DNA of 64,000 bases from contig NC_081367.1 in the NCBI RefSeq assembly GCF_030684315.1, positions 19,202,792 through 19,266,791 on the forward strand, read 5' to 3'. The stretch comes from Stegostoma tigrinum (taxonomy: Eukaryota). Shown here one piece after another: positions 3,776 through 63,189 of this stretch. The notes beneath the pieces were generated by a model. The model made no database searches, was not told the origin of the DNA, and saw only the letters and a list, made by a program, of their open reading frames with translations. Each line of letters begins with the position of its first letter. Within the stretch, counting starts at the first letter, position 1. The position numbers and the translations under genes are program-made.

Positions 3776-3784
3776 GATATGAAA

Positions 3785-5525: not shown

Positions 5526-5569
5526 TTCTTTGGTTGCTTCTTATCCAACAGAGAGCCCTCTAGAGGTAA

Positions 5570-16259: not shown

Positions 16260-16405
16260 CATTAATTTGGTTTAACACCAAGCACTGAATAAATTTATCA
16301 GGCGATACAATACTCTTAGTTTTGTTGTGCAGGTGCTGAAATACTTTGCCAAGGTGATATAGAATGTCGTTATTGGCTTTTATCAGAAGGTCTTTCTGTT
16401 GGCAA
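16260..16405 (-). CDS. USP18: USP18-like protease exon (CQQKDLLIKANNDILYHLGKVFQHLHNKTKSIVSPDKFIQCLVLNQIN)
   Basis: ttacag acceptor, G|gtaggt donor, 146 nt, phase 2 in and 1 out; joins both neighbouring exons in frame. Confidence 0.88.
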
Positions 16406-19149: not shown

Positions 19150-19150
19150 A

Positions 19151-25750: not shown

Positions 25751-28700
25751 ATGATTATCAGTTCGTGGAGATTTTTCAGCCTTTAGTTTCATCAATTTTC
25801 CCAACACCAATTCCTTACTAATACTGATACCTTCAGTTCCTCACTCTCGCTAAACTCTCCATTCCCAAACATTTTTGGGACATTATTTGTGTCCTTCTTT
25901 AAGAAGACAAAACCAAAACATCTATTTAATTGGTCTGCCATTGTAATCCATTATAACTTGCCCTGTCTCTGACTGTAAGGGACTTATATTTGTCTTCACT
26001 GATCCTTTTCTCTTCACATAACAATTGAAGTTTTTACAATCAGTTAGTATATTCCCCATAAGCTGACTCTCATATTCTATTGTTCCTGTCTTAGTAAATC
26101 CTCTTATCCTTCTTTGCTCAAATCTCAACTGCTGCCAATCCTCAGGTTTGCTGATTTTTTTGGCCAAGTTGGATGTTCCTTCTTGGATTTAAAACTATCC
26201 CGAGTTTCCCTAGCTAGCCATGGTCAAGCTATGTTTTCAGTTTTATTTTTGTGTCAGGCAGGGATAAATAATTAAGGCAGTTGCTCCATGCACTTTTTAA
26301 ATGCTTGCTACTGCTTATGCATCATTATGTCTTTTTTCCAAAGTAACATTTTATCATAGTTATCTCTCGCTTCCTAACATCATTGTTTCCTTTATTTAGA
26401 TTCAGGACCCTAGTCTTAGAATCAACTGCATCACGCCCGTTTAAGAGAAAAGATTCTGTTTTATTATGGCCAGTCTTCTTCCAAGTGGCCTTGCATTACT
26501 AGATTGCTAATTATTCCTTTCTTGTTGCACAGTACCAAGTATAGGATGACCTCTTCTCTGGTTGGTTCTTCAACAGATTGATCTGGAAAAACCATTAAGT
26601 ACACACGTTAAACCAGATAACATCTGTTCGTCACTTTACTTCAACATCTCTGCAGCTACTAATTTGTCAAACTTCAGCGTAATTTCCATCTTTTGATGCT
26701 CTACTCCCCATTCAAATTATTGTAACTATTCAATGCAGCTTTGCTCACTGAAGACTTCCAACATGAATGGATGTGGCTGTTTGCTGTTCACTGCCACAAC
26801 TTGCTGAACACACAAAGCACTATTGCATTAAGTTTTTGTTCGTTAGAAGTGCTCATTATTCCAGTTTTTGTCCTGGAATGAAAAAATAACCTCTGGCTTC
26901 TTCTCTCTACAATAACCCATCTTCTTGAAACCTTCTCCCATCTACTCTACATTCACTTCCATCAAAATGTGCAAGGAATTCATAGATATATTTATCACTA
27001 GAAGTGAATCCATACAATCTACAGCATTTATTGTTTTTCCCTTCTTCACCAGCCCACCAAAGCTAAATTTCATTAAAGCTCCCTGTGATTTAGCCCTGAA
27101 TTCAAATAGTTTCTTAAAATTTGTTTATTTCCTATTCTCTCTGAGTTCATATCGTCTTTGAAACACACAACTTGTTCCTTTGATTTGTTCCAACTAACCC
27201 TCTGACTGCTCAACATCCCCTTCTGTCGGCCTTTTCTGTAAATTAATCTTTCTTCAGATGCTGTCCTTCTCTCTTTTAAACATAATGTCATCTTTCCTCT
27301 TCTGGAAAACCAATCCTTTATGAAATCCTTGCAAACTACCATTCCAAATCTTTTACTCTTCCCCAATTTGTACCCTTGTTTCCTGAAATTTCATTTTTGA
27401 ATCCTTCTAAACAAGTTTCTGCCCCTGTCACTTACAGAAAGTACTTTCAAACTCTGCTCCTTAGCTACTGACTCCATCACTTTGCCTGGTAACTGCGTGA
27501 GGCTGATGTGTTCATACCTTTGGTGTCACATTTAACCCTGAAGTAAGCTTTTGTCCATATAACTGTGCCATCACGAAGGAGATAATTTATTTCCATCAAT
27601 ATGCCTTCACTGTATCTCAGCTCATCTGCATCTGAAATCATTGCTCATATCTATGTTCCTTCTAGACCCAACCATTCTGTGCACTCCAAACTAATCTTCT
27701 CCATTTTACCCTTTGCAGATTCAGGGTCATTCAAAACTTTGGCGCCCAAATCCTATTTTTATTCATTGATGGTCTATTGCCAGTGGCTGGGCCAGTATTT
27801 ATTATTCATCATTAATTGCCTTTGAGAAGGTGGTGATGAGCAGGAATTTCCTCCAATTAAATTCTTCTTGAACTGCTTAAGTTCATTTGGTGTAAATAGA
27901 ACAACAATACTGTTAGGGAGGGAGGTCCAAGATTTTGACCCAACAACAGTGAATAAACTATGATTTGTTCACCACATAACTGCTGCTCTTGTCCTTCTAA
28001 ATGATAGCAGTAACGGGTTTTTGAACATGTTTTCAAAAGTTGCTGTTGCCTATGCACCACCATGTCTTTCCTCCAAAGTAAAATTCGCAATTTATCATAG
28101 ATTTTTCATGCTTCCTAAAATTTATAATTCGCAGCTAGTCCTGTTCACCCATCACTCCTCTGCTCATTAACTACACTAGGTTATTTTAAATACTCCTGCT
28201 TAGTCTCAATTACCTTCATGCCCTCCCTCCTCCACATCTCTGAAATTTCCTCCAGTCCCACAACCCTATGACATATCCCTAAACGTGGCCTATTTTAATT
28301 GTTCCAGCTGCCAAGGTCCTAAGTTATGAAATTTACACTCTTAATCTCTCATTTATCTTTCATTTTTTAAGATACTCCTTGTTAAACCACTTTGATTGAC
28401 CATTTGATTATCTGCCCAATATCTCCTTATGTAATCCAGTATCAGTGTTCTGTTATAATGTCTATGTGAAACCCTTTGAAACACCATTCTAGTAATTAAA
28501 AGTTTTGGTCGTCTGAACTAAAATCTCCTTATGTTTGCTGCTGTTACATTTTAATGTACATATTATGTATATATTATATATATAATGCTTCTGTCTTGAG
28601 ATGTTTCAGTATGTTAAAAACACTGTATAAATATAAATTATTGCTGTGTTTCATTGTTGTCAACTGAATCCAATATCTGCATGCATTCTGACTGAAAGTT

Positions 28701-28962
28701 CTACATAACTGAAGCATGGTTTCCTCATTAAGCCAAAATTCAATCTGGTTACCTCTGAATGAGTTACATAGGAATCAATAAAAAGAGCCATCAGTTAGGC
28801 GAAGGTAGAAATGTTTGACCATGTGTAAAATATGAAAAAGGCGTTTCTTGAGTAACGTAAATTTTGCAAAATCTGCTAAAAGAAAAATTGAGTGATATAA
28901 AAATAATCTTACTTAGTTATAAATCTGAATAATGTAAGTAAATCAGCAAAACTAGAACTTAC

Positions 28963-29059
28963 TTTGAAAGTAGACAGCTATATTCTGGAATCATAAACAA
29001 GGTTTGCAGAAGGGCATTTACACAACAGTTGTTGCTTGTATTGGCGAGTCTCACAAATA
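28963..29059 (-). CDS. USP18: USP18-like protease, Cys-box exon ((I)FVRLANTSNNCCVNALLQTLFMIPEYSCLLS)
   Basis: ttttcatag acceptor, gtaagt donor, 97 nt, phase 1 in and 2 out. The CC doublet is like recalled USP18 TCCLNSLIQ. Exon sizes 97/146/80/150/96/159/132/62 closely follow my recollection of human USP18 (97/146/80/147/96/168/132/50). Confidence 0.95.
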
Positions 29060-29329
29060 CTATGAAAAGAAATAATATATTACCCACATTTTTGAGATAA
29101 CCTTTACATTCAATGAACTGCAGCTTCAAGCTTCCAGTATGCATAATTGATTTGGATGGCCACTACACGTTTCTAACAAATTATACTGTGAATTTTCTCC
29201 CAAGTTATTTCCTCTACTCAGGGAATAAGCCAGTAAAGAGAAAAGCAATTTCACATTTATATCTATCACAAACAACTGATTCCAATTTTGAGGCCCCCAC
29301 CCCCACCCCAATGAGTATTAATCAGAATC

Positions 29330-40854: not shown

Positions 40855-40866
40855 GAAAGCGAAACT
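40855..40866 (-). promoter_or_regulatory. ISRE upstream of the USP18-like gene
   Basis: GAAAGCGAAACT, which reads AGTTTCGCTTTC(TC) on the minus strand; exact ISRE consensus AGTTTCNNTTTC in a CpG-rich region. Confidence 0.75.
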
Positions 40867-41189: not shown

Positions 41190-42370
41190 GAGTCACAGAT
41201 CGGAATCAGTCACAGCACGGAAACACACCGTTCACTCCTATTCGTCCAAGCCGACTCTGTAGCCTAAATTACTCTAGTCCCATTTGCCAGCGTTTGGCCC
41301 TCATCCCTTCCTATTCATGTAAGTATCCAGATGTCTCTTAAATATTGAAATTGTACCAGCCTCCGCCACTTGCTCTGACATTTCGTTCCATAGAGGCACC
41401 ACCCGCGGGAAAAAAAGTTGCCCCTTAGGTTCCTTTTAAATCTTGCCCATCTCACCATAAACCATACCCTCAGGTTTTGGATTCCTCTACCATGGAGGAA
41501 AAGGCCTTGGCTGTTCACTCTGCCCATGACCCTCGTGGTTTTAAAAACTGCTGTAAGGTCATCCTTCAGCCTTTGACACTCCAGGGAAAATAGCCCCAGC
41601 CTATTCAGCCTCTCCCTATAGCTCAAACCCTCCAACCCTGGCAGCATTCTTGTTAATCTTTTCTGAACCCTTTCAAGTTTCACAACATCCTTCCTATAGC
41701 AGGGAAACCAGAACTAAACAGAGTACTCCAAAGTGGCCTAACTAATGTACTGTACAGCCACAGCACGACCTCCCAACTGTTATACTCGCTGCACTGACCA
41801 ACAAAGGCAAATGTACCAAATGCCTCAGATAACAAAGTGTGAAGCTGGATGAATTATCCCATTATCACTGTACTAAATGCCTTCTTCACTGTCCTGTCTA
41901 CCTAGGACTCCACTTTCAAGGATCTATGAGCCTACATTCCAAGGTCTCTTTGTTTAGCAACACTCCCCAGGACCTTATTATTAAGTATATAAGCCCTCCC
42001 CTGATTTTCCTTTCTGAAATGCAGTACCTCTCATTCGTCAAAATTAAACTTCATCTGCCACTTCTCAGCCCATTGACCCATCTGATCAAGGTCCCATTGT
42101 GCTCTGAGATAACTTTCTTGGCCCTCCACTATACTACCAATTTTGGTGCCATCTGCAAACTTCCTAACCATACCTTCTACATTCACATCCAAATCATTTA
42201 TATAAATGACAAAAAAGAGTAGACCCAGCACCAATCCTTGTGGCACACAGCTGGTCACAGACCTCCTGTCGAAAAAGCAACTCCACCACTTCTGTCTCCA
42301 CCTGTCAAGCCAGTTATGCATCCAAATGGCTAGTTCTCCCTGGATCCCATGTAATCTAACCTTACTTATT
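41190..42370 (-). mobile_element. CR1 LINE RT and 3' end
   Basis: ORFs KLERVQKRLTRMLPGLEGLSYRERL and SCVPQGLVLG...KFADGTKIG. Contains a 43-bp Penelope micro-insert (41826-41868) flanked by tgtac(c/t)aaatgcct. Confidence 0.88.
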
Positions 42371-43966
42371 GTAGGTGCACACACAATGACTGTAGAGCTC
42401 TTGTGGTACAGTGGTAATGTCCATATCTCTGAGCCAGATGGCCTGGGTTCAAGTACCACCTGTGTAAGACGTGTGTAATACTATTTCTGAATGGGTAGAT
42501 TTTTAAAAATCTGCACCGTGCCTTTAGGAGAGAGTTCCAAGCATAGGACCGGTGATTGTATTTCAACATCAGGATGGTGGGAACTTGCATGTGGTGGTTT
42601 TGCCATGAATCTGCTGCTCCAGTCCTTCTGAATGGTAGTAATCATGTGTTTGGAAGATGCTGCTTAAAGAAAATTAAGGAGTTGTTGTAATTATCTTGTA
42701 GGTAGTACATGCTGCTGCCACTGTGCATCAGTGGTATATGGAGTAAATATTTGTGGATGTGGTGCCAGGGTGAAGTTGTGATCTAATGGTAATGTCACAG
42801 GACCAGTAATCTTAAACCCCAAGCTGAAGTTCTGGGGACCTACTTTCAAATCTCCCAGGGCAGATGATGAAATTTTAATTCTTTTAAGAGAACAAAGCCA
42901 GATTAATGGCAACTATGCAACCACTGCCAATTGTCACAAAAATACCTGTTTGGTTCACAGTGACCGATAGGTAAGGAACTCTACTATCCTCAACTGGTTA
43001 GGCCTATTTCTGACTCCAGACCCTCAGCAATGTGGTTAACTCTTAGGGATGGGCAACTGACCAGTGACACTATATTTTATGAATGAATAGAAGAAAAGTG
43101 TGAGGGGCAACCAAAGCTGGCCTTGAGGTGAATGAAGGGGGATCTCATAGACATTTAAAAAATTCTAATAGAATGAAACAGTTTAGATGTGGGAAGGATG
43201 TTCCCAATGTTGGGTGAGTCCAGAACCTGGGGTCATAGTTTAATAGTAAAAAGACTGAGAAAACATTTCTTCACCCAAAGAATAGTAAGCCTGTGGAATT
43301 CATTAACACCAAAAGTGATTGAGGGCAAAACATTCAGTTCTCAAGCATGAGGTAGATATAGCTCTTGTGGCGAAAGGGATCAAGTAATATGGGGCAGAGT
43401 GGGATTAGGGTACTGAGTTCCGTCGTCAACTATAATCATGTTGAATGGTTGAGCAAGCTAGAGGGGTCGAATGGCCTGCTCCTGGCTTGTATATTTTTTC
43501 TGTTTCAATGCCATACCACATTAAAGCATGAAATTACATACAAGTCAGCGCCAAGAGAATTAATAAAGTGTGTAACTACTGTCGCTATTGATATATATGT
43601 ATAAACACCAATTGAACAAAACTCTCCCTTATATAGTCATAATGTTTTCCAATGTCAGCAGCTCCGAATCAAAATCCACAATAATAAAACTGTAAATAAT
43701 CAAGCCACTATGCCTCAACCAGGGTTGCAGTGTGGAAAATACAGATTACCTTTCCAAACACGGCAATTTTTTTTTCTTTATTCACTTGTGTCAGTGAAAG
43801 CCATAGGCTGGGCCAGCATTTATTGTCAGTCACGAGTTGCCCTTCAGAAGGCGGTGGTGTGCAATATTTTATTGTGTTATGAGATGGCCTTAATGCTGTA
43901 AAGCACTTCTCAATTTATTAAGGGGATTTGACATGGAGCAAATTGAGGAAGTTGTTTTCAGTCGCA

Positions 43967-44036
43967 AGCCAATGAGTTCGTTTAGTACTTTTCTTCAATC
44001 AGGCTGACCAAAATCAAAAGTGAAACTGAATGCACC
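43967..44036 (+). promoter_or_regulatory. UBL copy 1 promoter: CCAAT box and IRF-E/ISRE-like element
   Basis: AGCCAATGAG (CCAAT at 43969-43973) and AAAAGTGAAACT at 44016-44027, about 90 nt before the ATG. Confidence 0.65.
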
Positions 44037-44119
44037 AACGGTATTTGCAATTGATCTTGAAAACTACGCACCAAATAGATTGCAAGTTCCAGTCTATACA
44101 GACAGATACAGGCCGGAAA

Positions 44120-44264
44120 ATGGGGAAAATCTATGAAGTATTTGTGCTGGGATTGAAAGGGGAAAGAATAACTGTTGATGTTTCACAATCTGAGACAGAA
44201 TTTCACGCAATGCCCGTTCACAAGTTTAAGGAGCTCTTGCTGAAGAAAATCCCTGGAGGAACAG
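44120..44264 (+). CDS. Single-domain ubiquitin-like protein (PGG type), copy 1, exon 1
   Basis: aaaATGG start; MGKIYEVFVLGLKGERITVDV aligns with ubiquitin MQIFVKTLTGKTITLEV; G|gtacat donor, phase 1. Confidence 0.88.
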
Positions 44265-44512
44265 GTACATGGGCAATAATTGCATAAAAGAGTAGCCTTG
44301 TCAAATTCGTAACAATAATCAGCTAAAGAATCGAATGGTTAATCACATCGCCTGGTGGTACGGGTTGAAAATTAAACTGCATGATACCGATTCAAATCGG
44401 TGGATTTTTAAGCGTCTACTCCAAACATTAGAATTTAGCTTTCCGGAGGGATGCGGGGTCTAAATCTATTTAAATTTAACATTGGAATAAGAACTAACCA
44501 TAGTGTGTACTG

Positions 44513-44794
44513 GTGATAATGGAAACTGCAGATGCTGGAGAATCCAAGATAATGAATCCAGCATCTGCAGGTCCCATTATCACTGATTCCAGCATCTGCA
44601 GTTCCCATTATCACTGATTCTTGGATTCTCCAGCATCTGCAGTTCCCACTATCACTGATACAATTTTAACCACACTGCGAAGACTCTTCCAGGGATGCAC
44701 CCTCTCAGATGAAGGGTCTAGGCCCGAAACGTCAGCTTTTGTGCTCCTGAGATGCTGCTGGACCTGCTGTGTTCATCCAGCCTCACATTTCATT
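44513..44794. mobile_element. Rearranged mini-Penelope insert in the UBL intron
   Basis: Inverted and triplicated Penelope terminal segments; 13-bp direct repeat atagt(g/a)tgtactg at 44500-44512 and 44795-44807. Confidence 0.75.
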
Positions 44795-44864
44795 ATAGTA
44801 TGTACTGAGTTTTTTTTCAGATTTGTTTATTCTTCTCCGTTTCTCTTTGTGTTTTATGGATTAG

Positions 44865-45037
44865 CCGGGGCAAACGAATTGCGCCTTCTTTTTGCCGAAA
44901 AACATTTGGAGGATAACAAAACATTCTCTGACTACAACATCAAGGATCAATCAACAATCCTTTTGGTGTTACGTCTGCCCGGTGGAGTGGTACAGAGAGA
45001 AGGTTTCGGAGGCCTTATCATACTGCTTAAAAAATGA
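44865..45037 (+). CDS. Ubiquitin-like protein copy 1, exon 2 (...[52 protein letters not shown])
   Basis: Polypyrimidine tract and ttag acceptor, phase 1. Aligns with ubiquitin [36 protein letters not shown]. Spliced CDS is 318 nt (105 aa). Confidence 0.92.
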
Positions 45038-45276
45038 CATTCCAATTACCTGATGGATCTGTCCAATCGAACTCTGAAAACCCGAAATCGCTATGTTATT
45101 CGAGGAAGCTGACATTACCGAAATGTTAACGTCACTGCGTGTTAATTACTTTAGAAATATCTTTCATAGCATTAGTACGTATGTGCTATGATAAATCACA
45201 ACTTGTATTTTAACATTGAGCCTGTAGAAGAGCTTGTTTATTTGTTCTCTCCTCATAAGTGATCTTTTGTATTCCT

Positions 45277-45282
45277 AATAAA
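45277..45282 (+). terminator. Polyadenylation signal of UBL copy 1
   Basis: AATAAA 240 nt after the stop, followed by T/GT-rich sequence. Confidence 0.55.
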
Positions 45283-45959
45283 TTTCACACATTGGCAATT
45301 TATATAATTATGATGATTTGTTTTAGTTTTACAGTGTTGGGTAGTGGCTCAGTGGCTTGTCCAGCCTTTATGGAGGGTCAGTTAAGAAACAATCTAAGTT
45401 ATCTGGTTCTGGAGTGATATGTAAAGGCAGGCACTTTTCCTTTCTAAATGTTGACTGAAAGAGATGGCTTTTTAAAAAAAAGTTGACAGTTTTATGGTGA
45501 CCGTTGCTAAAACTGACGTTTAATTCCAGATTCATAATGAATGTTCCAAATTTAAGCTCATCATATGTGATTAACATACAAGTAGATTGGCTGGCAGCAG
45601 AAAACAAAGAGTATGCATAAACCAGAGATCAGCAAGATGTGATGTGTGGGGTCCTGCAATTATCTACGCTGAGCCGTTTTCACAACCTCAATCAGTGATA
45701 TAGTTGGGGATTGAAGGAATAGTGGCAGATGACATAAAGCAAACGAGGAAAGCATATTGTGAAGAGGTAATAGGAACTGCAAATGCTGGCGAATCTGAGA
45801 TAACAAGGTGTAGAGCTGGATGAACACAGCAGGCCAAGCAGCATCTTAGGAGCAGGAAGCTGATGTTTCGGGCGGAGACCCTTCATCAGAAATGGGGGAG
45901 GGGAAGGGGGTTGTGAAATAAATAGGGAGAGAGGGAGATGAGGATTGAAGATGGCATAA

Positions 45960-46830
45960 CAAGGCTGCAGAGGCTGTATATAAGTTGAGCAAATGAGCAA
46001 AAAATTGGCAAATACAGTATAATGTAAATATAATAGAAAAATATGAAGTTGTTCATTTGGGAAAAATGAATGTAAATGCGTGTATAATTATATATTATAT
46101 AAATGGAGAACTGCGCACAATTACAAGTTACAGAGGGACCTAGATGTTCTTGACATGTCACAAAAAGTTTGTATGCAAGTAGAGCACGTGATTAAGAAAG
46201 TTAATAGAATGATATTCTTCATTATGAAAAAATTTGAACATAAGGCTAAAGATGTGATGTTTCAGTCATACAGAGCATTAACAAAGCATCATCTCAAACT
46301 CTGTGAGGTTTCCGTCTCCTTACTCAAAGACGGATGCAAATGCATTTGGAGGCAGGTCAGAAAAGGTTTATTAATTTGAGACCTGGAAAGAGCAGGTTAT
46401 CTTATCGGAAAGATTTGGCAGATTGGCTTCTTTTCACTAGAAATTAAAACAGTGAGGGATGATTTGATTGAAGTCTTTAAGATCCTGGATGATCTTGACA
46501 AGGTGGCCAGGAAAGGATTTTGTAGGTGAGTGCAGAACTAGGGGACACTGTTTAAAATTAGGGCTTGATCTTTGAGGACAGGGATGAGGAGAATTTTTTT
46601 CTCTCAGAATGTTCTCAGACTTTTGAACACATTATCTCAGGAGGTGGTGGAAGTGTGTCATTGAATATTGTTAAGACAGATATGGATAGATCCATGTTAG
46701 GCAAGGTATCAGTGGTTATTGGAATAAATGGAAATGTGGAATTTGGATCATGAATGGATCAACTACAATCTGTTAATGGTAGAGCAGCTTGAAGGATTGA
46801 TGTCTACTTCTGTTCCTGTTTGGTATCTTT
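45960..46830 (+). mobile_element. Old CR1 3' fragment (duplicated at about 54760-55630)
   Basis: QRDLDVL...VEHVIKKVNRM and gatttgattgaagtctttaagatc are CR1 3' motifs. Confidence 0.7.
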
Positions 46831-49800
46831 GTACGTATATTCGTACTTTGATTTATACTTCCGTCCCACACATTTGCTTGAACATTAAGAATACTAGTCC
46901 AGTGGCATTTGCACTACACTACAGCTGATGAAAATGATGATAACAGTCTATAGCATTTTGAGATTCTAAAATCCAACTGCAAAGTGCACAGACTTAGACT
47001 CAAGAAAGGAACGGTTCATATTGCATGAAACCTAAATCCTAAATACTGACTTTGTCACGGAATAAGTTCAGTGATTAGAAAGTTGTTTTCTTTGATATAT
47101 GCCAGAATCATAACTAGCAAGTCTTCAGGAAAGAAAATCTGGATCTTCGGGGAGCAGCAATCATCATTAAATTTCAGCTCCACTCAAACTTATACCCTGA
47201 TTCAATGTTGCTTTGAGTTTCTTGCCACGTCTTGTGTGACCACCTTTCCGAGAAATGCAGAAAGCAACAACTTCTCAGAGAGCTCAGTCACAGTGGAATA
47301 GAGTTTGCTCCTCTTTTAATGCTCTGCTGGAATGGGTGCAAGGATAAATACATGAACATGAATAGGTAAGATAGATAAATGAGTATGATAAGTGGTCAAC
47401 TTGGTGAATTAAGTAGGTAGGTGGATTGGTAATGGCTGGGTAGGCAGATGTTTAAGGTGTTAGGCAAGTGGAGTGCCTAGGTCAAGGGTCAGTCAGACAC
47501 AGGGAGAAGGTGCAAACACCACACAGACAGTTGCCCAAGAGTGGAATTGAACCCAAGTCCTTGGTGCTGTGAGGCAACAGTGCTAAACACTGAGCCACTG
47601 TGAAGAAGCACAAGCAACAGAGACATTCAACAGTTCAGACTACATCTGCTGAGAAATTAGTCAAGTATAATGCACTGCATGTTGTATTTTGGAATAGATT
47701 CCAGATATGACAACTTTGTATCATTAAGACAGGTATATGACATCATAACATATGTCCTTCTGGAGTAAAAATGCAGGCCTCACTTTCACATTCTTTCTAT
47801 ATAATGGAGTTATTGTAGTCAATTAGTTATGTGTGTGTATGTGTACTGTAGTAACATCAACAAACACAGAACTTCAGATTTATTTGCACATCTGTGATAT
47901 TATTAGCCTGTCAAAAGATAATGTAAATAAACTTAAAGATATCTCGCTCAACAGAATCTGTTTATCGGTGGTTTATAGTACGCAGGGTAACATAAACTGA
48001 AAAGTACAAATAGCATCTTTGCTTATAATAATTTTGTCAACTGACTAATCATGATCTATCAATTGTTGCTCTTTTATCTGATGAATGTCTCTGTCATCTC
48101 TGTTTTTTCCTTTTGAATAATTGGCTATGATATTGACAAAGATGCATTTCCTGACCAGAGGGTTGGAGTTTTAGTCAACGCATCGGCACACATTTTTAAA
48201 AATGGGATGCCAATCAAGATGTCAGTGTAGAGGGGTGGTTTGAAGCAAACTACTGCTGATGCTAGCGTTCCAGGTCCCGAACCATGCAACTCCATGGTGG
48301 GGTTTGGGAAGGACGTTGAACTGATGCTTGACATTGCAATGAGTCAGATCAAAGGATGATGTCCGAATTCTGACTGACGAGTGGGTGCAACTACTGAGTG
48401 TTTGTGGAGGTGTTTTGGATGGAGTACTTCAATATGGGAGGGATGTTATGGGGTCTATACAAGGGAAGCAGGTAGTTTGGAGCATCAAGAGGGTACACCT
48501 GCTGGCCGTGCTGTAAAAGCAGTTATGTCTTCCCCAAAACTGTCTTTTCCTTCCAAGATCTAGGGAACTTGAATGGTCAGGATTCAATCTGCAAATGGAA
48601 GTTACCATATGATTGCAACCTCATTATTTCAATGACAACTCGCTTCCAGGGAGTGGGTTAGCTGCTCTCCATCTTGTGTTTTGCCTCAATTAAACCCAAA
48701 ATAAATGGTTGTTTCATCATCAGAGAAGAACAATTTAAAGACCATTATCCTCAAATTCCTCAGCTCATGGAAGAGTTGAGTGTAGTTATTCACTTCAAGG
48801 ATGTTGATGTTACTGGCAACGGCAGCCTTTATTGGCTCCCTCCTCATTTAAAATGTTCTGGTAGCCTTCTCTGTTGAACAGTTCCTGTGGTGTAGCTATC
48901 TTCACAGAGCTGTTGTGGAGAGTTTTGCTAGATTTCTATTAAGTTCAGATGAAGAAACAATGATTTATGCCCAAATCAGGACATAATGTAACTCGAAGAG
49001 GAATTTCGAGTGGTGAATATACCTATGCCCATCCAGAAGGGCTATTCTCCTGTTTTTATATATTTACATAGAATGGACTCAGAACAACCCCCAACCCAAC
49101 CCTTACATTTCCCTGGCCCTACTATCCCTATTCAGCTTCACTTGTACAATGACCATGTGTTGTTAGCCACAGCACAGTTTTATTTCATTCTCTGCAATGT
49201 TTGATGCATTGTAGCAACACATAGGCTTTATGGTCGATGGACTGCAATGACCAATACTATGGGTTATCTCCTAACTTACCAGGATTCCAAAAGTATTGCC
49301 ACTGAATTTCTAGGTTACTGCCATTTAAAATAAAACACACAAAATGAGGAGGAAATGTATAAGCCAATGTAATTTAATATATCCCTGTTAATTGAAGTGA
49401 ACTTTGAAATCAGGAACAGGGGAAAAAGAACTATGAAACAAATGCTATATGGGTGTAATCTTCATATCAAACAATCTCCAATTTCCATAAACACCAACTC
49501 TTACTGGAAAACAAAACCAGAGTAAGAGTGCCATTTCAAGTATTGTAGTCCTAGCTGAGAGTAATACTGCAGAAGTCAGCTGTCAAAGTAAAACCTGGCA
49601 TACATTACAAGTTTCATTTTTAATTTGTTTACTGTGGAGGTCAGTTCCTGTACATATTTATAAGGGGATGCCAATGTACTTTTAAAAAGAGAACATAAGC
49701 ATTTACTACAGTACAAAGAAAAAAAATCTTAAACTTCAGTACTCAAGTCAACAACAATTAGAATGATCTCATCACTTTAATATCAGCAATATCCTGACAA

Positions 49801-50277
49801 AAACTCAAACCTCAGTGAAAGGCTACTTTTATCACCCTGCTAAACCTTCTTGCTCAGTTGGCAGAGCTGCAGTTGTTTTCCACACAGCAAATTTCAGCAG
49901 TTATGCCTCTTCCCCCTGCATCAAATTGCTTTCAGTTTCTTTTCTCTCTCACTGGTGCAAGTAAAATTAAAGTATAGAAACACACAAAAAATTAGCTCCA
50001 AGCTGGCTTGCTGGTCATTTAGCAAATATCACATGACTTCTTGCTAATGCTGTTTCAAAATCAATGTTTTTAATTGGCTGAACATTTTGTAAAAAGTCAG
50101 ATCTTCACAGAACTGGAATCAAAAATCCATTTTCCCCATTTTAGAATCCAAGTTCTTAGATATTATGAAGCTTCATAAGTGCCTGTTTAATGGCTGACAC
50201 AGTCTGCACAGGTATGCACACACAGCAGAGGTAGACGTCACATGACTACAGAAAACCAACCATACACCAAGTAAAAG

Positions 50278-50775
50278 ATAATAAAATGTGAGGCTGGATG
50301 AACACAGCAGGCCCAGCAGCATCTCAGGAGCACAAAAGCTGACGTTTCGGGCCTAGACCCTTCATCAGAGAGGGGGATGGGGAGAAGGTTCTGGAATAAA
50401 TAGGGAGAGAGGGGGAGGCGGACCGAAGATGGAGAGAAAAGAAGATAGGTGGAGAGGAGAGTATAGGTGGGGAGGTAGGGAGGCGATAGGTCAGTCCAGG
50501 GAAGACAGACAGTTCAAGGAGGCGGGATGAGGTGGTAGGTAGGAACTGGAGGTGCGGCTTGAGGTGGGAGGAAGGGATGGGTGAGAGGAAGAACAGGTTA
50601 GGGAAGCAGAGGCAGACTGGGCTGGTTTTGGGATGCAGTGGGGGGAGGGGAAGAACTGGGCTGGTTTTGGGATGCAGTGGGGGAAGGGGAGATTTTGAAG
50701 CTTGTGAAGTCCACATTGATACCATTGGGCTGCAGGGTTCCCAAGCGGAATATGAGTTGCTGTTCCTGCAACCAC
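50278..50775 (-). mobile_element. Penelope-like 3' fragment (duplicated at about 59080-59617)
   Basis: Translates as LQEQQLIFRLGTLQPNGINVDF, the end of the GIY-YIG ORF, followed by the terminal region. Confidence 0.85.
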
Positions 50776-52817
50776 GAAGTAAAAACGCATTTCTCTGATC
50801 ATCGCTCTTTTTGTAAATGTACGAGAAATTGCATGGGCTATTATTTATATTTATTAAGCTCTTCCAAGTAAGTATTATAATTGATCAAAAGAAAATTATA
50901 ATTCATTAATCAAACTGTGTGTAAACACTTGCCATTCCATTCCATGGTCTCTGTCTATGCATTACATACATAGTCCATAGATCACACAAACGACTTAAAT
51001 CCTAACTGAGCACGTGCACATTGTTATTAGCTGTTCACCTGTTAACAACTCCTCAGTCCTTGGGTAGTGTGCTGTCGCTGGGGAGTGTCACTCTTGTGGA
51101 AAGTGTTGTTGCCATGGTCACTGGGGTTGCCGATCCAATTCTATTGTTCCATGTAATCTAACCTTACTAATTGTAGGTGCACACACAATGACTGTAGAGC
51201 TCTTGTGGTACAGTGGTAATATCCATATCTCTGAGCCAGATGGCCTGGGTTCAAGTACCACCTGTGTAAGACGTGTGTAATACTATTTCTGAATGGGTAG
51301 ATTTTTAAAAATCTGCACCGTGCCTTTAGGAGAGAGTTCCAAGCATAGGACCGGTGATTGTATTTCAACATCAGGATGGTGGGAACTTGCATGTGGTGGT
51401 TTTGCCATGAATCTGCTGCTCAAGTCCTTCTGAATGGTAGTAATCATGTGTTTGGAAGATGCTGCTTAAAGAAAATTAAGGAGTTGTTGTAATTATCTTG
51501 TAGGTAGTACATGCTGCTGCCACTGTGCATCAGTGGTATATGGAGTAAATATTTGTGGATGTGGTGCCAGGGTGAAGTTGTGATCTAATGGTAATGTCAC
51601 AGGACCAGTAATCTTAAACCCCAAGCTGAAGTTCTGGGGACCTACTTTCAAATCTCCCAGGGCAGATGATGAAATTTTAATTCTTTTAAGAGAACAAAGC
51701 CAGATTAATGGCAACTATGCAACCACTGCCAATTGTCACAAAAATACCTGTTTGGTTCACAGTGACCTGTAGGTAAGGAACTCTACTATCCTCAACTGGT
51801 TAGGCCTATTTCTGACTCCAGACCCTCAGCAATGTGGTTAACTCTTAGGGATGGGCAACTGACCAGTGACACTATATTTTATGAATGAATAGAAGAAAAG
51901 TGTGAGGGGCAACCAAAGCTGGCCTTGAGGTGAATGAAGGGGGATCTCATAGACATTTAAAAAATTCTAATAGAATGAAACAGTTTAGATGTGGGAAGGA
52001 TGTTCCCAATGTTGGGTGAGTCCAGAACCTGGGGTCATAGTTTAATAGTAAAAAGACTGAGAAAACATTTCTTCACCCAAAGAATAGTAAGCCTGTGGAA
52101 TTCATTAACACCAAAAGTGATTGAGGGCAAAACATTCAGTTCTCAAGAATGAGGTAGATATAGCTCTTGTGGCGAAAGGGATCAAGTAATATGGGGCAGA
52201 GTGGGATTAGGGTACTGAGTTCCGTCGTCAACTATAATCATGTTGAATGGTTGAGCAAGCTAGAGGGGTCGAATGGCCTGCTCCTGGCTTGTATATTTTT
52301 TCTGTTTCAATGCCATACCACATTAAAGCATGAAATTACATACAAGTCAGCGCCAAGAGAATTAATAAAGTGTGTAACTACTGTCGCTATTGATATATAT
52401 GTATAAACACCAATTGAACAAAACTCTCCCTTATATAGTCATAATGTTTTCCAATGTCAGCAGCTCCGAATCAAAATCCACAATAATAAAACTGTAAATA
52501 ATCAAGCCACTATGCCTCAACCAGGGTTGCAGTGTGGAAAATACAGATTACCTTTCCAAACACGGCAATTTTTTTTTCTTTATTCACTTGTGTCAGTGAA
52601 AGCCATAGGCTGGGCCAGCATTTATTGTCAGTCACGAGTTGCCCTTCAGAAGGCGGTGGTGTGCAATATTTTATTGTGTTATGAGATGGCCTTAATGCTG
52701 TAAAGCACTTCTCAATTTATTAAGGGGATTTGACATGGAGCAAATTGAGGAAGTTGTTTTCAGTCGCAAGCCAATGAGTTCGTTTAGTACTTTTCTTCAA
52801 TCAGGCTGACCAAAATC

Positions 52818-52829
52818 AAAAGTGAAACT
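52818..52829 (+). promoter_or_regulatory. IRF-E/ISRE-like element of UBL copy 2
   Basis: AAAAGTGAAACT, identical to copy 1. Confidence 0.65.
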
Positions 52830-52921
52830 GAATGCACCAATGGTATTTGCAATTGATCTTGAAAACTACGCACCAAATAGATTGCAAGTTCCAGTCTATA
52901 CAGACAGATACAGGCCGGAAA

Positions 52922-53066
52922 ATGGGGAAAATCTATGAAGTATTTGTGCTGGGATTGAAAGGGGAAAGACTAACTGTTGATGTTTCACAATCTGAGACAG
53001 AATTTCACGCAATGCCCGTTCACAAGTTTAAGGAGCTCTTGCTGAAGAAAATCCCTGGAGGAACAG
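52922..53066 (+). CDS. Ubiquitin-like protein (PGG type), copy 2, exon 1
   Basis: Same as copy 1 except I17L (ATA to CTA). Confidence 0.88.
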
Positions 53067-53666
53067 GTACATGGGCAATAATTGCATAAAAGAGTAGCCT
53101 TGTCAAATTCGTAACAATAATCAGCTAAAGAATCGAATGGTTAATCACATCGCCTGGTGGTACGGGTTGAAAATTAAACTGCATGATACCGATTCAAATC
53201 GGTGGATTTTTAAGCGTCTACTCCAAACATTAGAATTTAGCTTTCCGGAGGGATGCGGGGTCTAAATCTATTTAAATTTAACATTGGAATAAGAACTAAC
53301 CATAGTGTGTACTGGTGATAATGGGAACTGCAGATGCTGGAGAATCCAAGATAATGAATCCAGCATCTGCAGGTCCCATTATCACTGATTCCAGCATCTG
53401 CAGTTCCCATTATCACTGATTCTTGGATTCTCCAGCATCTGCAGTTCCCACTATCACTGATACAATTTTAACCACACTGCGAAGACTCTTCCAGGGATGC
53501 ACCCTCTCAGATGAAGGGTCTAGGCCCGAAACGTCAGCTTTTGTGCTCCTGAGATGCTGCTGGACCTGCTGTGTTCATCCAGCCTCACATTTCATTATAG
53601 TATGTACTGAGTTTTTTTTCAGATTTGTTTATTCTTCTCCGTTTCTCTTTGTGTTTTATGGATTAG

Positions 53667-53839
53667 CCGGGGCAAACGAATTGCGCCTTCTTTTTGCCGA
53701 AAAACATTTGGAGGATAACAAAACATTCTCTGACTACAACATCAAGGATCAATCAACAATCCTTTTGGTGTTACGTCTGCCCGGTGGAGTGGTACAGAGA
53801 GAAGGTTTCGGAGGCCTTATCATACTGCTTAAAAAATGA
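53667..53839 (+). CDS. Ubiquitin-like protein copy 2, exon 2
   Basis: Translation identical to copy 1 exon 2, ending [22 protein letters not shown]. Confidence 0.92.
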
Positions 53840-56800
53840 CATTCCAATTACCTGATGGATCTGTCCAATCGAACTCTGAAAACCCGAAATCGCTATGTTA
53901 TTCGAGGAAGCTGACATTACCGAAATGTTAACGTCACTGCGTGTTAATTACTTTAGAAATATCTTTCATAGCATTAGTACGTATGTGCTATGATAAATCA
54001 CAACTTGTATTTTAACATTTAGCCTGTAGAAGAGCTTGTTTATTTGTTCTCTCCTCATAAGTGATCTTTTGTATTCCTAATAAATTTCACACATTGGCAA
54101 TTTATATAATTATGATGATTTGTTTTAGTTTTACAGTGTTGGGTAGTGGCTCAGTGGCTTGTCCAGCCTTTATGGAGGGTCAGTTAAGAAACAATCTAAG
54201 TTATCTGTTTCTGGAGTGATATGTAAAGGCAGGCACTTTTCCTTTCTAAATGTTGACTGAAAGAGATGGCTTTTTAAAAAAAAGTTGACAGTTTTATGGT
54301 GACCGTTGCTAAAACTGACGTTTAATTCCAGATTCATAATGAATGTTCCAAATTTAAGCTCATCATATGTGATTAACATACAAGTAGATTGGCTGGCAGC
54401 AGAAAACAAAGAGTATGCATAAACCAGAGATCAGCAAGATGTGATGTGTGGGGTCCTGCAATTATCTACGCTGAGCCGTTTTCACAACCTCAATCAGTGA
54501 TATAGTTGGGGATTGAAGGAATAGTGGCAGATGACATAAAGCAAACGAGGAAAGCATATTGTGAAGAGGTAATAGGAACTGCAAATGCTGGCGAATCTGA
54601 GATAACAAGGTGTAGAGCTGGATGAACACAGCAGGCCAAGCAGCATCTTAGGAGCAGGAAGCTGATGTTTCGGGCGGAGACCCTTCATCAGAAATGGGGG
54701 AGGGGAAGGGGGTTGTGAAATAAATAGGGAGAGAGGGAGACGAGGATTGAAGATGGCATAAAAAGGCTGCAGAGGCTGTACATAAGTTGAGCAAATGAGC
54801 AAAAAATTGGCAAATACAGTATAATGTAAATATAATAGAAAAATATGAAGTTGTTCATTTGGGAAAAATGAATGTAAATGCGTGTATAATTATATATTAT
54901 ATAAATGGAGAACTGCGCACAATTACAAGTTACAGAGGGACCTAGATGTTCTTGACATGTCACAAAAAGTTTGTATGCAAGTAGAGCACGTGATTAAGAA
55001 AGTTAATAGAATGATATTCTTCATTATGAAAAAATTTGAACATAAGGCTAAAGATGTGATGTTTCAGTCATACAGAGCATTAACAAAGCATCATCTCAAA
55101 CTCTGTGAGGTTTCCGTCTCCTTACTCAAAGACGGATGCAAATGCATTTGGAGGCAGGTCAGAAAAGGTTTATTAATTTGAGACCTGGAAAGAGCAGGTT
55201 ATCTTATCGGAAAGATTTGGCAGATTGGCTTCTTTTCACTAGAAATTAAAACAGTGAGGGATGATTTGATTGAAGTCTTTAAGATCCTGGATGATCTTGA
55301 CAAGGTGGCCAGGAAAGGATTTTGTAGGTGAGTGCAGAACTAGGGGACACTGTTTAAAATTAGGGCTTGATCTTTGAGGACAGGGATGAGGAGAATTTTT
55401 TTCTCTCAGAATGTTCTCAGACTTTTGAACACATTATCTCAGGAGGTGGTGGAAGTGTGTCATTGAATATTGTTAAGACAGATATGGATAGATCCATGTT
55501 AGGCAAGGTATCAGTGGTTATTGGAATAAATGGAAATGTGGAATTTGGATCATGAATGGATCAACTACAATCTGTTAATGGTAGAGCAGCTTGAAGGATT
55601 GATGTCTACTTCTGTTCCTGTTTGGTATCTTTGTACGTATATTCGTACTTTGATTTATACTTCCGTCCCACACATTTGCTTGAACATTAAGAATACTAGT
55701 CCAGTGGCATTTGCACTACACTACAGCTGATGAAAATGATGATAACAGTCTATAGCATTTTGAGATTCTAAAATCCAACTGCAAAGTGCACAGACTTAGA
55801 CTCAAGAAAGGAACGGTTCATATTGCATGAAACCTAAATCCTAAATACTGACTTTGTCACGGAATAAGTTCAGTGATTAGAAAGTTGTTTTCTTTGATAT
55901 ATGCCAGAATCATAACTAGCAAGTCTTCAGGAAAGAAAATCTGGATCTTCGGGGAGCAGCAATCATCATTAAATTTCAGCTCCACTCAAACTTATACCCT
56001 GATTCAATGTTGCTTTGAGTTTCTTGCCACGTCTTGTGTGACCACCTTTCCGAGAAATGCAGAAAGCAACAACTTCTCAGAGAGCTCAGTCACAGTGGAA
56101 TAGAGTTTGCTCCTCTTTTAATGCTCTGCTGGAATGGGTGCAAGGATAAATACATGAACATGAATAGGTAAGATAGATAAATGAGTATGATAAGTGGTCA
56201 ACTTGGTGAATTAAGTAGGTAGGTGGATTGGTAATGGCTGGGTAGGCAGATGTTTAAGGTGTTAGGCAAGTGGAGTGCCTAGGTCAAGGGTCAGTCAGAC
56301 ACAGGGAGAAGGTGCAAACACCACACAGACAGTTGCCCAAGAGTGGAATTGAACCCAAGTCCTTGGTGCTGTGAGGCAACAGTGCTAAACACTGAGCCAC
56401 TGTGAAGAAGCACAAGCAACAGAGACATTCAACAGTTCAGACTACATCTGCTGAGAAATTAGTCAAGTATAATGCACTGCATGTTGTATTTTGGAATAGA
56501 TTCCAGATATGACAACTTTGTATCATTAAGACAGGTATATGACATCATAACATATGTCCTTCTGGAGTAAAAATGCAGGCCTCACTTTCACATTCTTTCT
56601 ATATAATGGAGTTATTGTAGTCAATTAGTTATGTGTGTGTATGTGTACTGTAGTAACATCAACAAACACAGAACTTCAGATTTATTTGCACATCTGTGAT
56701 ATTATTAGCCTGTCAAAAGATAATGTAAATAAACTTAAAGATATCTCGCTCAACAGAATCTGTTTATCGGTGGTTTATAGTACGCAGGGTAACGTAAACT

Positions 56801-59800
56801 GAAAAGTACAAATAGCATCTTTGCTTATAATAATTTTGTCAACTGACTAATCATGATCTATCAATTGTTGCTCTTTTATCTGATGAATGTCTCTGTCATC
56901 TCTGTTTTTTCCTTTTGAATAATTGGCTATGATATTGACAAAGATGCATTTCCTGACCAGAGGGTTGGAGTTTTAGTCAACGCATCGGCACACATTTTTA
57001 AAAATGGGATGCCAATCAAGATGTCAGTGTAGAGGGGTGGTTTGAAGCAAACTACTGCTGATGCTAGCGTTCCAGGTCCCGAACCATGCAACTCCATGGT
57101 GGGGTTTGGGAAGGACGTTGAACTGATGCTTGACATTGCAATGAGTCAGATCAAAGGATGATGTCCGAATTCTGACTGACGAGTGGGTGCAACCACTGAG
57201 TGTTTGTGGAGGTGTTTTGGATGGAGTACTTCAATATGGGAGGGATGTTATGGGGTCTATACAAGGGAAGCAGGTAGTTTGGAGCATCAAGAGGGTACAC
57301 CTGCTGGCCGTGCTGTAAAAGCAGTTATGTCTTCCCCAAAACTGTCTTTTCCTTCCAAGATCTAGGGAACTTGAATGGTCAGGATTCAATCTGCAAATGG
57401 AAGTTACCATATGATTGCAACCTCATTATTTCAATGACAACTCGCTTCCAGGGAGTGGGTTAGCTGCTCTCCATCTTGTGTTTTGCCTCAATTAAACCCA
57501 AAATAAATGGTTGTTTCATCATCAGAGAAGAACAATTTAAAGACCATTATCCTCAAATTCCTCAGCTCATGGAAGAGTTGAGTGTAGTTATTCACTTCAA
57601 GGATGTTGATGTTACTGGCAACGGCAGCCTTTATTGGCTCCCTCCTCATTTAAAATGTTCTGGTAGCCTTCTCTGTTGAACAGTTCCTGTGGTGTAGCTA
57701 TCTTCACAGAGCTGTTGTGGAGAGTTTTGCTAGATTTCTATTAAGTTCAGATGAAGAAACAATGATTTATGCCCAAATCAGGACATAATGTAACTCGAAG
57801 AGGAATTTCGAGTGGTGAATATACCTATGCCCATCCAGAAGGGCTATTCTCCTGTTTTTATATATTTACATAGAATGGACTCAGAACAACCCCCAACCCA
57901 ACCCTTACATTTCCCTGGCCCTACTATCCCTCATTCAGCTTCACTTGTACAATGACCATGTGTTGTTAGCCACAGCACAGTTTTATTTCATTCTCTGCAA
58001 TGTTTGTTGCATTGTAGCAACACATAGGCTTTATGGTCGATGGACTGCAATGACCAATACTATGGGTTATCTCCTAACTTACCAGGATTCCAAAAGTATT
58101 GCCACTGAATTTCTAGGTTACTGCCATTTAAAATAAAACACACAAAATGAGGAGGAAATGTATAAGCCAATGTAATTTAATATATCCCTGTTAATTGAAG
58201 TGAACTTTGAAATCAGGAACAGGGGAAAAAGAACTATGAAACAAATGCTATATGGGTGTAATCTTCATATCAAACAATCTCCAATTTCCATAAACACCAA
58301 CTCTTACTGGAAAACAAAACCAGAGTAAGAGTGCCATTTCAAGTATTGTAGTCCTAGCTGAGAGTAATACTGCAGAAGTCAGCTGTCAAAGTAAAACCTG
58401 GCATACATTACAAGTTTCATTTTTAATTTGTTTACTGTGGAGGTCAGTTCCTGTACATATTTATAAGGGGATGCCAATGTACTTTTAAAAAGAGAACATA
58501 AGCATTTACTACAGTACAAAGAAAAAAAATCTTAAACTTCAGTACTCAAGTCAACAACAATTAGAATGATCTCATCACTTTAATATCAGCAATATCCTGA
58601 CAAAAACTCAAACCTCAGTGAAAGGCTACTTTTATCACCCTGCTAAACCTTCTTGCTCAGTTGGCAGAGCTGCAGTTGTTTTCCACACAGCAAATTTCAG
58701 CAGTTATGCCTCTTCCCCCTGCATCAAATTGCTTTCAGTTTCTTTTCTCTCTCACTGGTGCAAGTAAAATTAAAGTAAAGAAACACACAAAAAATTAGCT
58801 CCAAGTTGGCTTGCTGGTCATTTAGCAAATATCACATGACTTCTTGCTAATGCTGTTTCAAAATCAATGTTTTTAATTGGCTGAACATTTTGTAAAAAGT
58901 CAGATCTTCACAGAACTGGAATCAAAAATCCATTTTCCCCATTTTAGAATCCAAGTTCTTAGATATTATGAAGCTTCATAAGTGCCTGTTTAATGGCTGA
59001 CACAGTCTGCACAGGTATGCACACACAGCAGAGGTAGAGGTCACATGACTACAGAAAACCAACCATACACCAAGTAAAAGATAATAAAATGTGAGGCTGG
59101 ATGAACACAGCAGGCCCAGCAGCATCTCAGGAGCACAAAAGCTGACGTTTCGGGCCTAGACCCTTCATCAGAGAGGGGGATGGGGAGAAGGTTCTGGAAT
59201 AAATAGGGAGAGAGGGGGAGGCGGACCGAAGATGGAGAGAAAAGAAGATAGGTGGAGAGGAGAGTATAAGTGGGGAGGTAGGGAGGCGATAGGTCAGTCC
59301 AGGGAAGACAGACAGTTCAAGGAGGCGGGATGAGGTGGTAGGTAGGAACTGGAGGTGCGGCTTGAGGTGGGAGGAAGGGATGGGTGAGAGGAAGAACAGG
59401 TTAGGGAAGCAGAGGCAGACTGGGCTGGTTTTGGGATGCAGTGGGGGGAGCGGAAGAACTGGGTTGGTTTTGGGATGCAGTGGGGGGAGGGGAAGAACTG
59501 GGCTGGTTTTGGGATGCAGTGGGGGAAGGGGAGATTTTGAAGCTTGTGAAGTCCACATTGATACCATTGGGCTGCAGGGTTCCCAAGCGGAATATGAGTT
59601 GCTGTTCCTGCAACCACGAAGTAAAAACGCATTTCTCTGATCATCGCTCTTTTTGTAAATGTACGAGAAATTGCATGGGCTATTATTTATATTTATTAAG
59701 CTCTTCCAAGTAAGTATTATAATTGATCAAAAGAAAATTATAATTCATTAATCAAACTGTGTGTAAACACTTGCCATTCCATTCCATGGTCTCTGTCTAT

Positions 59801-60449
59801 GCATTACATACATAGTCCATAGATCACACAAACGACTTAAATCCTAACTGAGCACGTGCACATTGTTATTAGCTGTTCACCTGTTAACAACTCCTCAGTC
59901 CTTGGGTAGTGTGCTGTCGCTGGGGAGTGTCACTCTTGTGGAAAGTGTTGTTGCCATGGTCACTGGGGTTGCCGATCCAATTCTATTGTTAGGAAATGAT
60001 GGACTGCTGAAGCTGATGGTCATTCTGTACTCAGTGCAAGTGGTGTGACGAAGCCTTCCTGATGCGTTGCCGAGATCAAAGGCACAGCTTCTTTTGATGA
60101 GGATAGATGCCTGCAATTGTCTGGATATATCATAATTATTCAATTATGGGTGACAACTGGACTAAATGGTCAAATGTTGCCATGTGGTCTGCTTTTTGGT
60201 GAGATATTTCAAAGTTTATTCAGTAAATGTCACCATAAACCCATAAGACTTCTCTTCCATTGAGGAAGATGGCTGGTGGTGGCTTAACCTGAGGGGCAGC
60301 ACACTGCAGGCAAGGGGAGAGGTTGAGAAGGAAGAACCTTAATTGTAACCACAGCTGGCGCAGGACTTGAACTCATGCTGTTGGTATGACTTATTATGCG
60401 ACCCCTAGCTACACGCTGACTGTCTCACTGATGCTGAGGTCTGATGACT

Positions 60450-62754: not shown

Positions 62755-62842
62755 ATGTCAACAGAACAACAACAAACTGAAAAGCGTTACGATCTAGATG
62801 ATCGTACGCTGAAATTTGTGAAAAGGGAAGATGAGATCACAG
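62755..62842 (+). CDS. First coding exon of a putative RBR-like E3 ligase (MSTEQQQTEKRYDLDDRTLKFVKREDEIT-G)
   Basis: ATG, 88 nt, strong G|gtaagt donor. EKRYD..D.TLKFV.R.D.ITG matches my recollection of the N-terminus of fish RBR-like proteins that continue RAEMSCGHAV. The rest was not found in the window. Confidence 0.6.
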
Positions 62843-63189
62843 GTAAGTTAAAATATCTACGTTCCGTTATATGCATGATTATGTTTTGAACCAGCAACAG
62901 AATTTAGTGTTGGAATTTTTATTCGCTAATTCATGATTTTAGACTCGCGTGATAAATGACTTTTTCAAAGGTCTTTAAAAATCTTTTGATTTTTCTTTGA
63001 GAAGGTTGTGTCCTTTCAGATCAGGGTGGTGTGACTTCCTCTGATTATATCAGAGCTGATTTAAGTGCAAGTAAACTGACATTGCTGCTACACTGAGGTA
63101 TAGTTATGAAATAAAGACTGAACGTCTCAATACTTTGTCTTGTGTACAAGTGATCAAATTTGAAACATTTACTTTGGCAGTACAATCGC

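Follow-up and report, generated by a model that had tools for sequence, protein, structure and literature searches.

The window analysed here, a 64,000-nucleotide stretch of zebra-shark DNA to which all plain coordinates refer, contains a small gene for a ubiquitin-like (UBL) protein that carries a Gly-Gly motif close to its C-terminus. Is the product of this gene a modifier that becomes attached to other proteins and, if so, which enzymes would activate, attach and remove it?

The UBL gene and its product

The gene occupies 44120-45037 in two coding exons, with a GT donor just past 44264, an AG acceptor ahead of 44865, a stop codon at 45035-45037 and an open frame for a 105-aa precursor. It lies in the first of two tandem units:

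44030..44119, + strand: upstream in-frame ATG of the RefSeq model; 30 added residues, not conserved in orthologues
44120..44264, + strand: first coding exon of the UBL; encodes residues 1-48 and one base more, with the family-specific insertion helix; RefSeq P0345
44265..44864, + strand: UBL intron; 600 bp, GT-AG, phase 1; contains a common interspersed repeat
44865..45037, + strand: UBL coding exon 2; R42 equivalent, LRLPGG, 16-aa tail and stop; Pfam ubiquitin
44978..44986, + strand: codons of Pro87-Gly88-Gly89, where processing and conjugation are predicted
45277..45282, + strand: AATAAA, a possible polyadenylation signal (consensus match only)
42347..59990, + strand: duplicated in tandem, with units of 8.8 kb at 42347-51148 and 51149-59990; 99.3% identity
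52922..53839, + strand: second copy of the UBL gene, with exons at 52922-53066 and 53667-53839; RefSeq P0002

The UBL gene is real; readings of it as a chance open reading frame or artefact, and as a diverged ubiquitin pseudogene, were rejected. Exon 2 matches the Pfam ubiquitin model with an E value of 2.6e-9. LRLPGG corresponds to residues 84-89 of the precursor, with Gly-Gly at 88-89 followed by the 16-aa tail, and the predicted mature protein, ending at Gly-Gly, has the 89 aa given in the first-pass annotation, which had been made from the letters of the window. The RefSeq model (P0345, LOC125457925) has the identical splice and starts 30 codons earlier, at 44030. The orthologues begin at the ATG equivalent to 44120, and a structure model that includes the RefSeq N-terminal extension is poor (pLDDT of 59); the ATG at 44030 is probably not the true start. 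The second copy, 8.8 kb downstream, differs from the first at 2/918 bases, with one Ile-to-Leu change. One DNA contig reaches over the duplication junction, with about 30 bases on its short side, just below the 31-base bar of the tool, and DNA-contig depth, which is no measure of copy number, is raised in the duplicated part. A search of sequencing runs listed no RNA run that carries the sequence. Elsewhere in the window, 17589-20568 holds two inverted 1.4-kb arms, 98% identical, with long retroelement-type open frames.

Ubiquitin is the closest match to the UBL in both sequence and structure. The UBL is 44% identical to the ubiquitin of the zebra-shark genome and 41% identical to the shark ISG15 C-domain. 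For the horn-shark orthologue, AlphaFold predicts the beta-grasp ubiquitin fold (pLDDT of 83.9), in which the insertion forms an additional helix, and Foldseek with this model returned ubiquitin chains as the best matches (rmsd of 1.1-2.9 Å). Alignment with zebra-shark ubiquitin bore out the residues listed in the first-pass annotation: L8, R42, K48 and R72 of ubiquitin are kept as L12, R55, K61 and R85, and the substitutions R74P, H68L, I44L, G47E and K63D are all present. The six-residue insertion that it had placed past strand 2 is there as well and accounts for the extra helix (residues 25-29) in the orthologue model. The intron, the 16-aa tail and the second gene copy had gone unremarked in that annotation. 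Whereas ubiquitin is a near-invariant protein of 76 aa that ends in LRLRGG and carries both K48 and K63, the zebra-shark protein ends in LRLPGG, has Asp at position 63 and shares 44% identity with it.

Range and conservation of the UBL family

By sequence, the zebra-shark UBL is the orthologue of zebrafish zgc:194655: it has the insertion helix, the conserved N-terminus and the LRLPGG of that family, and it nests in the family branch. The search profile, built from nine proteins of sharks and rays, had 2357 matches, of which the 120 listed were considered. Among the matches listed, the family extends over sharks, rays, chimaera, coelacanth, bichirs, sturgeons and teleosts, and no intact UBL of a tetrapod or spiny-rayed fish was found among these 120 of 2357. 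Several listed members are labelled zgc:194655 in RefSeq. Annotation of the family goes no further than uncharacterised, 'ubiquitin-like' or 'polyubiquitin', and the searches made brought up no recorded function. A profile search of 1.84 billion representatives gave an output dominated by polyubiquitins.

Conservation was counted over 58 members (57 listed rows plus the window protein, with ubiquitin/polyubiquitin rows and the second zebra-shark copy excluded), and the counts are biased upward because LRLPGG-bearing proteins went into the profile. R42, L73 and G75 are each present in 58/58 members and R72 and G76 in 57/58; position 74 is Pro in 53, Ala in 2, His in 2 and Arg in 1. K48 occurs in 31/58, Asp at position 63 in 52/58 and Glu at position 47 in 1/58, and neither K48 nor G47E is a family trait. 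As a family, the UBL thus differs from ubiquitin by R74P, K63D, a variable K48, a remodelled I44/H68 patch and the six-residue insertion. The family is fast-evolving, with about 45-76% identity between members, and the tail past Gly-Gly is unconserved, with a length of 1-56 aa and 13 different first residues among the 58. Four paralogues from catshark and smooth-hound (P0037, P0047, P0083 and P0105) have the ends LRLAGG (two), LRLRGG and LPLPGG and long tails of 26-56 aa.

In a tree of 63 rows and only 90 columns, with an unsettled bootstrap, the UBL family and an alligator fragment form their own branch (support of 99/97), apart from ubiquitin, both ISG15 domains and a sponge UBL, and the zebra-shark UBL is sister to the whale-shark protein (99/92). 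Such a phylogeny had been proposed as a check by the first-pass annotation, which matched the protein to none of ubiquitin, NEDD8, ISG15, FAT10, SUMO and FUBI. That claim stands for ubiquitin and ISG15, the two of these families that the tree covers, at 44% and 41% identity and on a distinct branch. Nesting within a known UBL family and loss of PGG among orthologues had been named beforehand as findings that would speak against the annotation. Neither was observed, because the branch is separate and PGG is conserved, with Pro in 53/58 listed members.

ISG15 is the modifier with which the UBL invites the closest comparison, since both are ubiquitin-fold precursors with R72, Gly-Gly and a USP18-type protease, in the case of the UBL one that is encoded nearby. 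By contrast with ISG15, which has two tandem UBL domains and ends in LRLRGG, the UBL has a single domain, LRLPGG, the extra helix and an intron in its coding region. The zebra-shark genome contains two identical ISG15-like di-UBL genes ending in LRLRGG (L006 and L007; G000:C34:15.73-15.75 Mb). The UBL as an ISG15 orthologue was rejected, given its separate tree branch and the location of the ISG15-like pair on another contig. NEDD8, FAT10, SUMO and FUBI are likewise ubiquitin-fold modifiers or precursors with a Gly-Gly end; in NEDD8, residue 72 is Ala, FAT10 consists of two domains and carries no tail, the C-terminus of SUMO differs, and FUBI forms a fusion with a ribosomal protein. Unlike NEDD8, the UBL has Arg at residue 72 in 57/58 listed members.

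Ligase and protease genes beside the UBL gene

The neighbourhood was read over the window and 200 kb on either side. Over about 170 kb, the two UBL copies share the region with two genes for ARIT RBR ligases, of which one is broken, and three for USP18-like/USP47-like proteases, of which one is incomplete. The order is USP(-), UBL, UBL, ARIT-A, USP, ARIT-B, USP(-); further genes may intervene because the gene screen was heuristic. The first-pass annotation had seen neither this cluster nor the UBL family.

2787..29060, - strand: USP-1, a USP18-like protease gene known from single exons
28983-29060 and 2787-2942, - strand: Cys box and His/Asp box of USP-1, respectively
near 15453-15680, 13788-13895, 7234-7335 and 6509-6643, - strand: further USP-1 exons
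40855..40865, no strand assigned: lone ISRE-like match in the stretch that separates USP-1 from the divergently oriented UBL gene
62755..62844, + strand: first coding exon of ARIT type A; the gene extends beyond the window to about G000:C17:19270784
G000:C17:19293402-19303473 (L012-L013), + strand: USP-2, between both ARIT genes; Cys box present
G000:C17:19315781-19322761 (L014-L015): ARIT type B; intact gene, open 268-aa frame, RBR whole
G000:C17:19342091-19373754 (L017-L020), - strand: USP-3; Cys, His and Asp boxes present

The ligases belong to the family of zebrafish si:ch211-212k18.15. These are bare RING1-IBR-RING2 proteins with a cysteine at the catalytic position, and their ligase activity is predicted. 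The usual RBR histidine is replaced by Asn or Tyr/Phe, and RNF144 likewise does without it. Pfam IBR scores of the shark ARIT exon fall below the cut-off, and a PDB sequence search with an ARIT profile gave 0 matches. Among 74 ARIT proteins (P0124-P0197), 31 are of type A, with Asn two residues past the catalytic Cys, and are mostly from fishes; 38 are of type B, with Tyr/Phe at that position, and come from sharks, amphibians, alligator and mammals. A Cys-x-x-x C-terminus is found in 18/38 type B versus 2/31 type A proteins, a pattern that suggests possible prenylation of type B. In the zebra shark, ARIT-A looks broken, with a frame break in exon 2 and an IBR exon that was not found in the gene. 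ARIT-B has the invariant cysteine at the RBR catalytic position; it ends early, and its whale-shark and bamboo-shark orthologues continue to a CaaX end. A GAS and ISRE pair (L014:8712-8746) lies about 250 bp upstream of ARIT-B and was matched in 0/200 shuffles, for a pattern chosen post hoc. The ISRE-like site at 40855..40865 is weak, with 1 match against 1.0 expected by chance.

For USP-1 and USP-3, the best matches are USP18 or USP47, as judged by single exons and without a full-length tree. The best PDB match of the USP-1 His-box exon is USP18 (E of 3e-11), and the USP-1 Cys-box motif is common to fish USP18. The His box of USP-2 was not found in a local search. A whole-genome search with a cyprinid USP gave no match, although local searches gave the three USP genes. 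Charged, Gln-rich open frames lie between the USP-3 exons, and a GIGYF2 label for exons within or beside USP-3 was dropped. Just upstream of the window, L048:21-1825 is a gene with a Myb/SANT-like DNA-binding domain, probably transposon-derived. Farther upstream, L036 and L039-L044 (G000:C17:19.06-19.15 Mb) look like EFHD1 and NGEF, which would tie the cluster to human 2q37.

Both enzyme families have been connected with interferon. ARIT and USP18-like were named in 2025 by Grimholt et al. (PMC12234341), and the neighbouring ligases match the ARIT alignment in the supplement of that paper. According to the parts of that source examined, salmon ARIT.1, ARIT.2 and USP18-like respond to IFN-gamma with log2 fold changes of 13.45, 11.59 and 4.93, and ARIT and USP18-like lie about 160 kb apart on salmon chr7. 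The same parts put ISG15 forward as possible ARIT cargo and leave the cargo open; they mention neither the UBL nor the clustering of the genes. The neighbours of the UBL are thus interferon-induced in salmon, a further likeness to the ISG15 system (PMC12234341, same parts).

UBL and ARIT lie on the same chromosome or scaffold in 17/17 species compared among the matches listed, which is not the same as adjacency, and cluster lists provide three further species that agree. In Triplophysa rosa, UBL and ARIT have consecutive accessions on a 98-kb contig, and the T. tibetana accessions are consecutive too. Five cypriniform species in the cluster lists, which presumably belong to polyploid lineages, have UBL and ARIT on different contigs, and one further species is represented by two assemblies. 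In a cyprinid gene model the UBL is joined to a USP-AIG1 gene, and in an alligator gene model a family-type UBL piece is joined to ARIT. In the USP that adjoins the cyprinid UBL, the protease is fused with a GTPase domain of the AIG1/GIMAP type (P0354 / P0348). A sponge protein, P0379, consists of UBL-Gly-Gly fused to an ARIT-type ligase; its UBL has no proline and falls outside the UBL family branch, and Parkin is among the named language-model clusters nearest to P0379. Parkin and P0379 each pair a UBL with an RBR ligase in one chain, whereas the zebra-shark UBL is a gene of its own with a free Gly-Gly end. Linkage of the UBL to ARIT and USP shows co-inheritance, not a substrate relation.

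In the zebra-shark genome, only two canonical E1 loci were found, at G000:C13:12.63-12.91 Mb and C3:17.0 Mb, which by sequence and synteny look UBA7-like and UBA6-like. No UBA1 locus was detected, and the E1 count is unreliable because a missing UBA1 reflects search or assembly limits. None of the candidates scored placed an E1 or E2 on C17. A probable true USP18 lies at G000:C22:558000-586000 (L082-L085), and the 100 kb examined around it held no UBL or ARIT match.

A candidate tagging pathway and its alternatives

A fixed Gly-Gly, a free tail and retained R42 and R72 form the pattern of processed, E1-activated modifiers such as ubiquitin, NEDD8 and ISG15. It is probable, from the sequence pattern of the family, that the UBL is conjugated to proteins. 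The ISG15 pathway comprises ISG15, UBA7, UBE2L6, HERC5/TRIM25/ARIH1 and USP18. We lean, by a small measure, towards a separate ISG15-like pathway for the UBL, with ARIT as its writer and a USP18-like protease as its eraser; the shark ISG15-like pair (C34) and the probable USP18 (C22) are, in contrast to the parts of such a pathway, loci apart from the UBL cluster.

In the proposed pathway, a linked USP18-like enzyme would trim the tail past Pro-Gly-Gly, with Pro74 giving specificity. Because the precursor needs a cut at Gly-Gly, some protease must read the UBL tail, and the linked USP18-like genes are likely to encode the proteases that do so. A canonical E1 that accepts R72 would then charge the UBL, UBA7 being the likeliest since it is the only E1 induced in the salmon interferon data (PMC12234341, in the parts examined). 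An unlinked E2 would pass the UBL to the catalytic cysteine of ARIT, which would attach it to targets, probably as a single unit; modification by single units is suggested because K48 is variable and position 63 is Asp. The linked USP18-like proteases would also detach the UBL from its targets. The cluster would probably be interferon-induced, as are ISG15 and USP18, and by analogy the UBL gene is probably interferon-linked. The shielding from ordinary deubiquitinases (DUBs) proposed in the first-pass annotation is plausible by analogy: ubiquitin and NEDD8 with proline at position 73 are still conjugated while their removal is blocked (PMC5419743, in the parts examined). In the UBL the proline is at 74 (P3), the published precedent is at 73 (P4), and 5/58 listed members have Ala, His or Arg at 74.

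The same gene arrangement could have arisen from a detached Parkin-type regulatory domain, an unconjugated UBL that acts on ARIT non-covalently as an inhibitor or allosteric activator. The single UBL-RBR chain of the sponge relative, with Parkin among its nearest named clusters, fits such a role, as do the lack of flanking domains in ARIT (PMC12234341, in the parts examined) and the fact that ARIT adjacency is the best-conserved linkage of the UBL. We regard this reading as unlikely, for without cleavage or conjugation it is difficult to account for a Gly-Gly that 57/58 members keep ahead of an unconstrained tail, the sponge fusion itself carries Gly-Gly at the junction, and USP genes are linked as well. 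An improbable alternative, too, is that the UBL is indeed conjugated, but by the general ubiquitin machinery (UBA1/UBA6 together with common E2s and E3s) and acts as a cap resistant to DUBs, while ARIT and the USPs serve ubiquitin or ISG15 and share only their regulation with it. The 44% identity to ubiquitin, the retained R42 and R72 and the search that found no dedicated E1 or E2 agree with this, and the proline-73 variants of ubiquitin and NEDD8 (PMC5419743, in the parts examined) show that a conjugatable yet removal-resistant tail can exist. It would leave the ARIT linkage from chimaera to teleosts and the sponge fusion unexplained, would still require a proline-tolerant protease for the precursor, and draws on a precedent that concerns position 73, not 74.

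Two further readings seem to us very improbable. A decoy that resists cleavage, is not conjugated and ties up USP18-like proteases of the host or proteases of pathogens would account for the conserved protease-contact residues, for a Pro74 that could block cleavage and for the flanking USP18-like genes, but not for the ligase linkage, the one-residue tails of some members or the Ala, His or Arg at position 74 in a few. Alternatively, the family may function elsewhere while the zebra-shark copies decay: ARIT-A is broken, USP-2 is incomplete, ARIT-B stops short of the CaaX end of its relatives, the UBL tail has 16 aa against 2 in the whale shark and its branch length is 0.20 against 0.11. However, the frames of both UBL copies are open, their splice sites are canonical, none of the near-invariant contact residues is missing, and the RBR of ARIT-B is whole.

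The separate ISG15-like pathway remains the reading that we prefer, and it can be extended, tentatively and with somewhat less than an even chance, into a history: a further UBL pathway of jawed vertebrates, held in one immune cluster, with a PGG modifier, ARIT as E3 and the USP18-like enzymes as sole proteases, which would have arisen when an ancient UBL-Gly-Gly-RBR fusion split, been kept across fishes, decayed in tetrapods, been lost in humans and been missed by K-GG proteomics. Against a dedicated pair, ARIT type B persists in mammals and an intact tetrapod UBL is absent among the matches listed; against a full pathway, ARIT-A of the zebra shark is broken and USP-2 is without a detected His box. 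The replaced RBR histidine of ARIT, the five cypriniform species with UBL and ARIT on different contigs, the chance-level ISRE beside the UBL and the negative E1 and E2 result for C17 among the candidates scored also count against it, and ARIT could act on ubiquitin or ISG15 instead.

The catalogue of ubiquitin-like modifiers in vertebrates is commonly regarded as complete. A search of the full-text literature, with subscription journals and several supplementary tables outside its scope, turned up no account of either the UBL or the UBL-ARIT-USP cluster, and the UBL had no match in the supplement of PMC13355688 or in the main text of bioRxiv 10.1101/693333. The supplement of PMC11637437, in the part examined, gives a non-significant change of zgc:194655 in neural cells. 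The genes were already known as uncharacterised database entries; what is new is the UBL as a candidate conjugated modifier with candidate dedicated enzymes. If true, this would be a new branch of fish innate immunity, from chimaeras to teleosts, with a candidate writer and eraser adjoining; it would give the ARIT ligases, which are orphans and strongly induced by interferon, a cargo, and likewise the USP18-like proteases, and it would show how a natural tail proline can make a modifier orthogonal to ubiquitin.

Conjugates of the UBL would have a distinctive signature. Because Arg74 is absent, trypsin is predicted to leave Leu-Pro-Gly-Gly rather than Gly-Gly on target lysines, a remnant of +324.18 Da from residue masses, and standard K-GG enrichment would therefore probably miss them.
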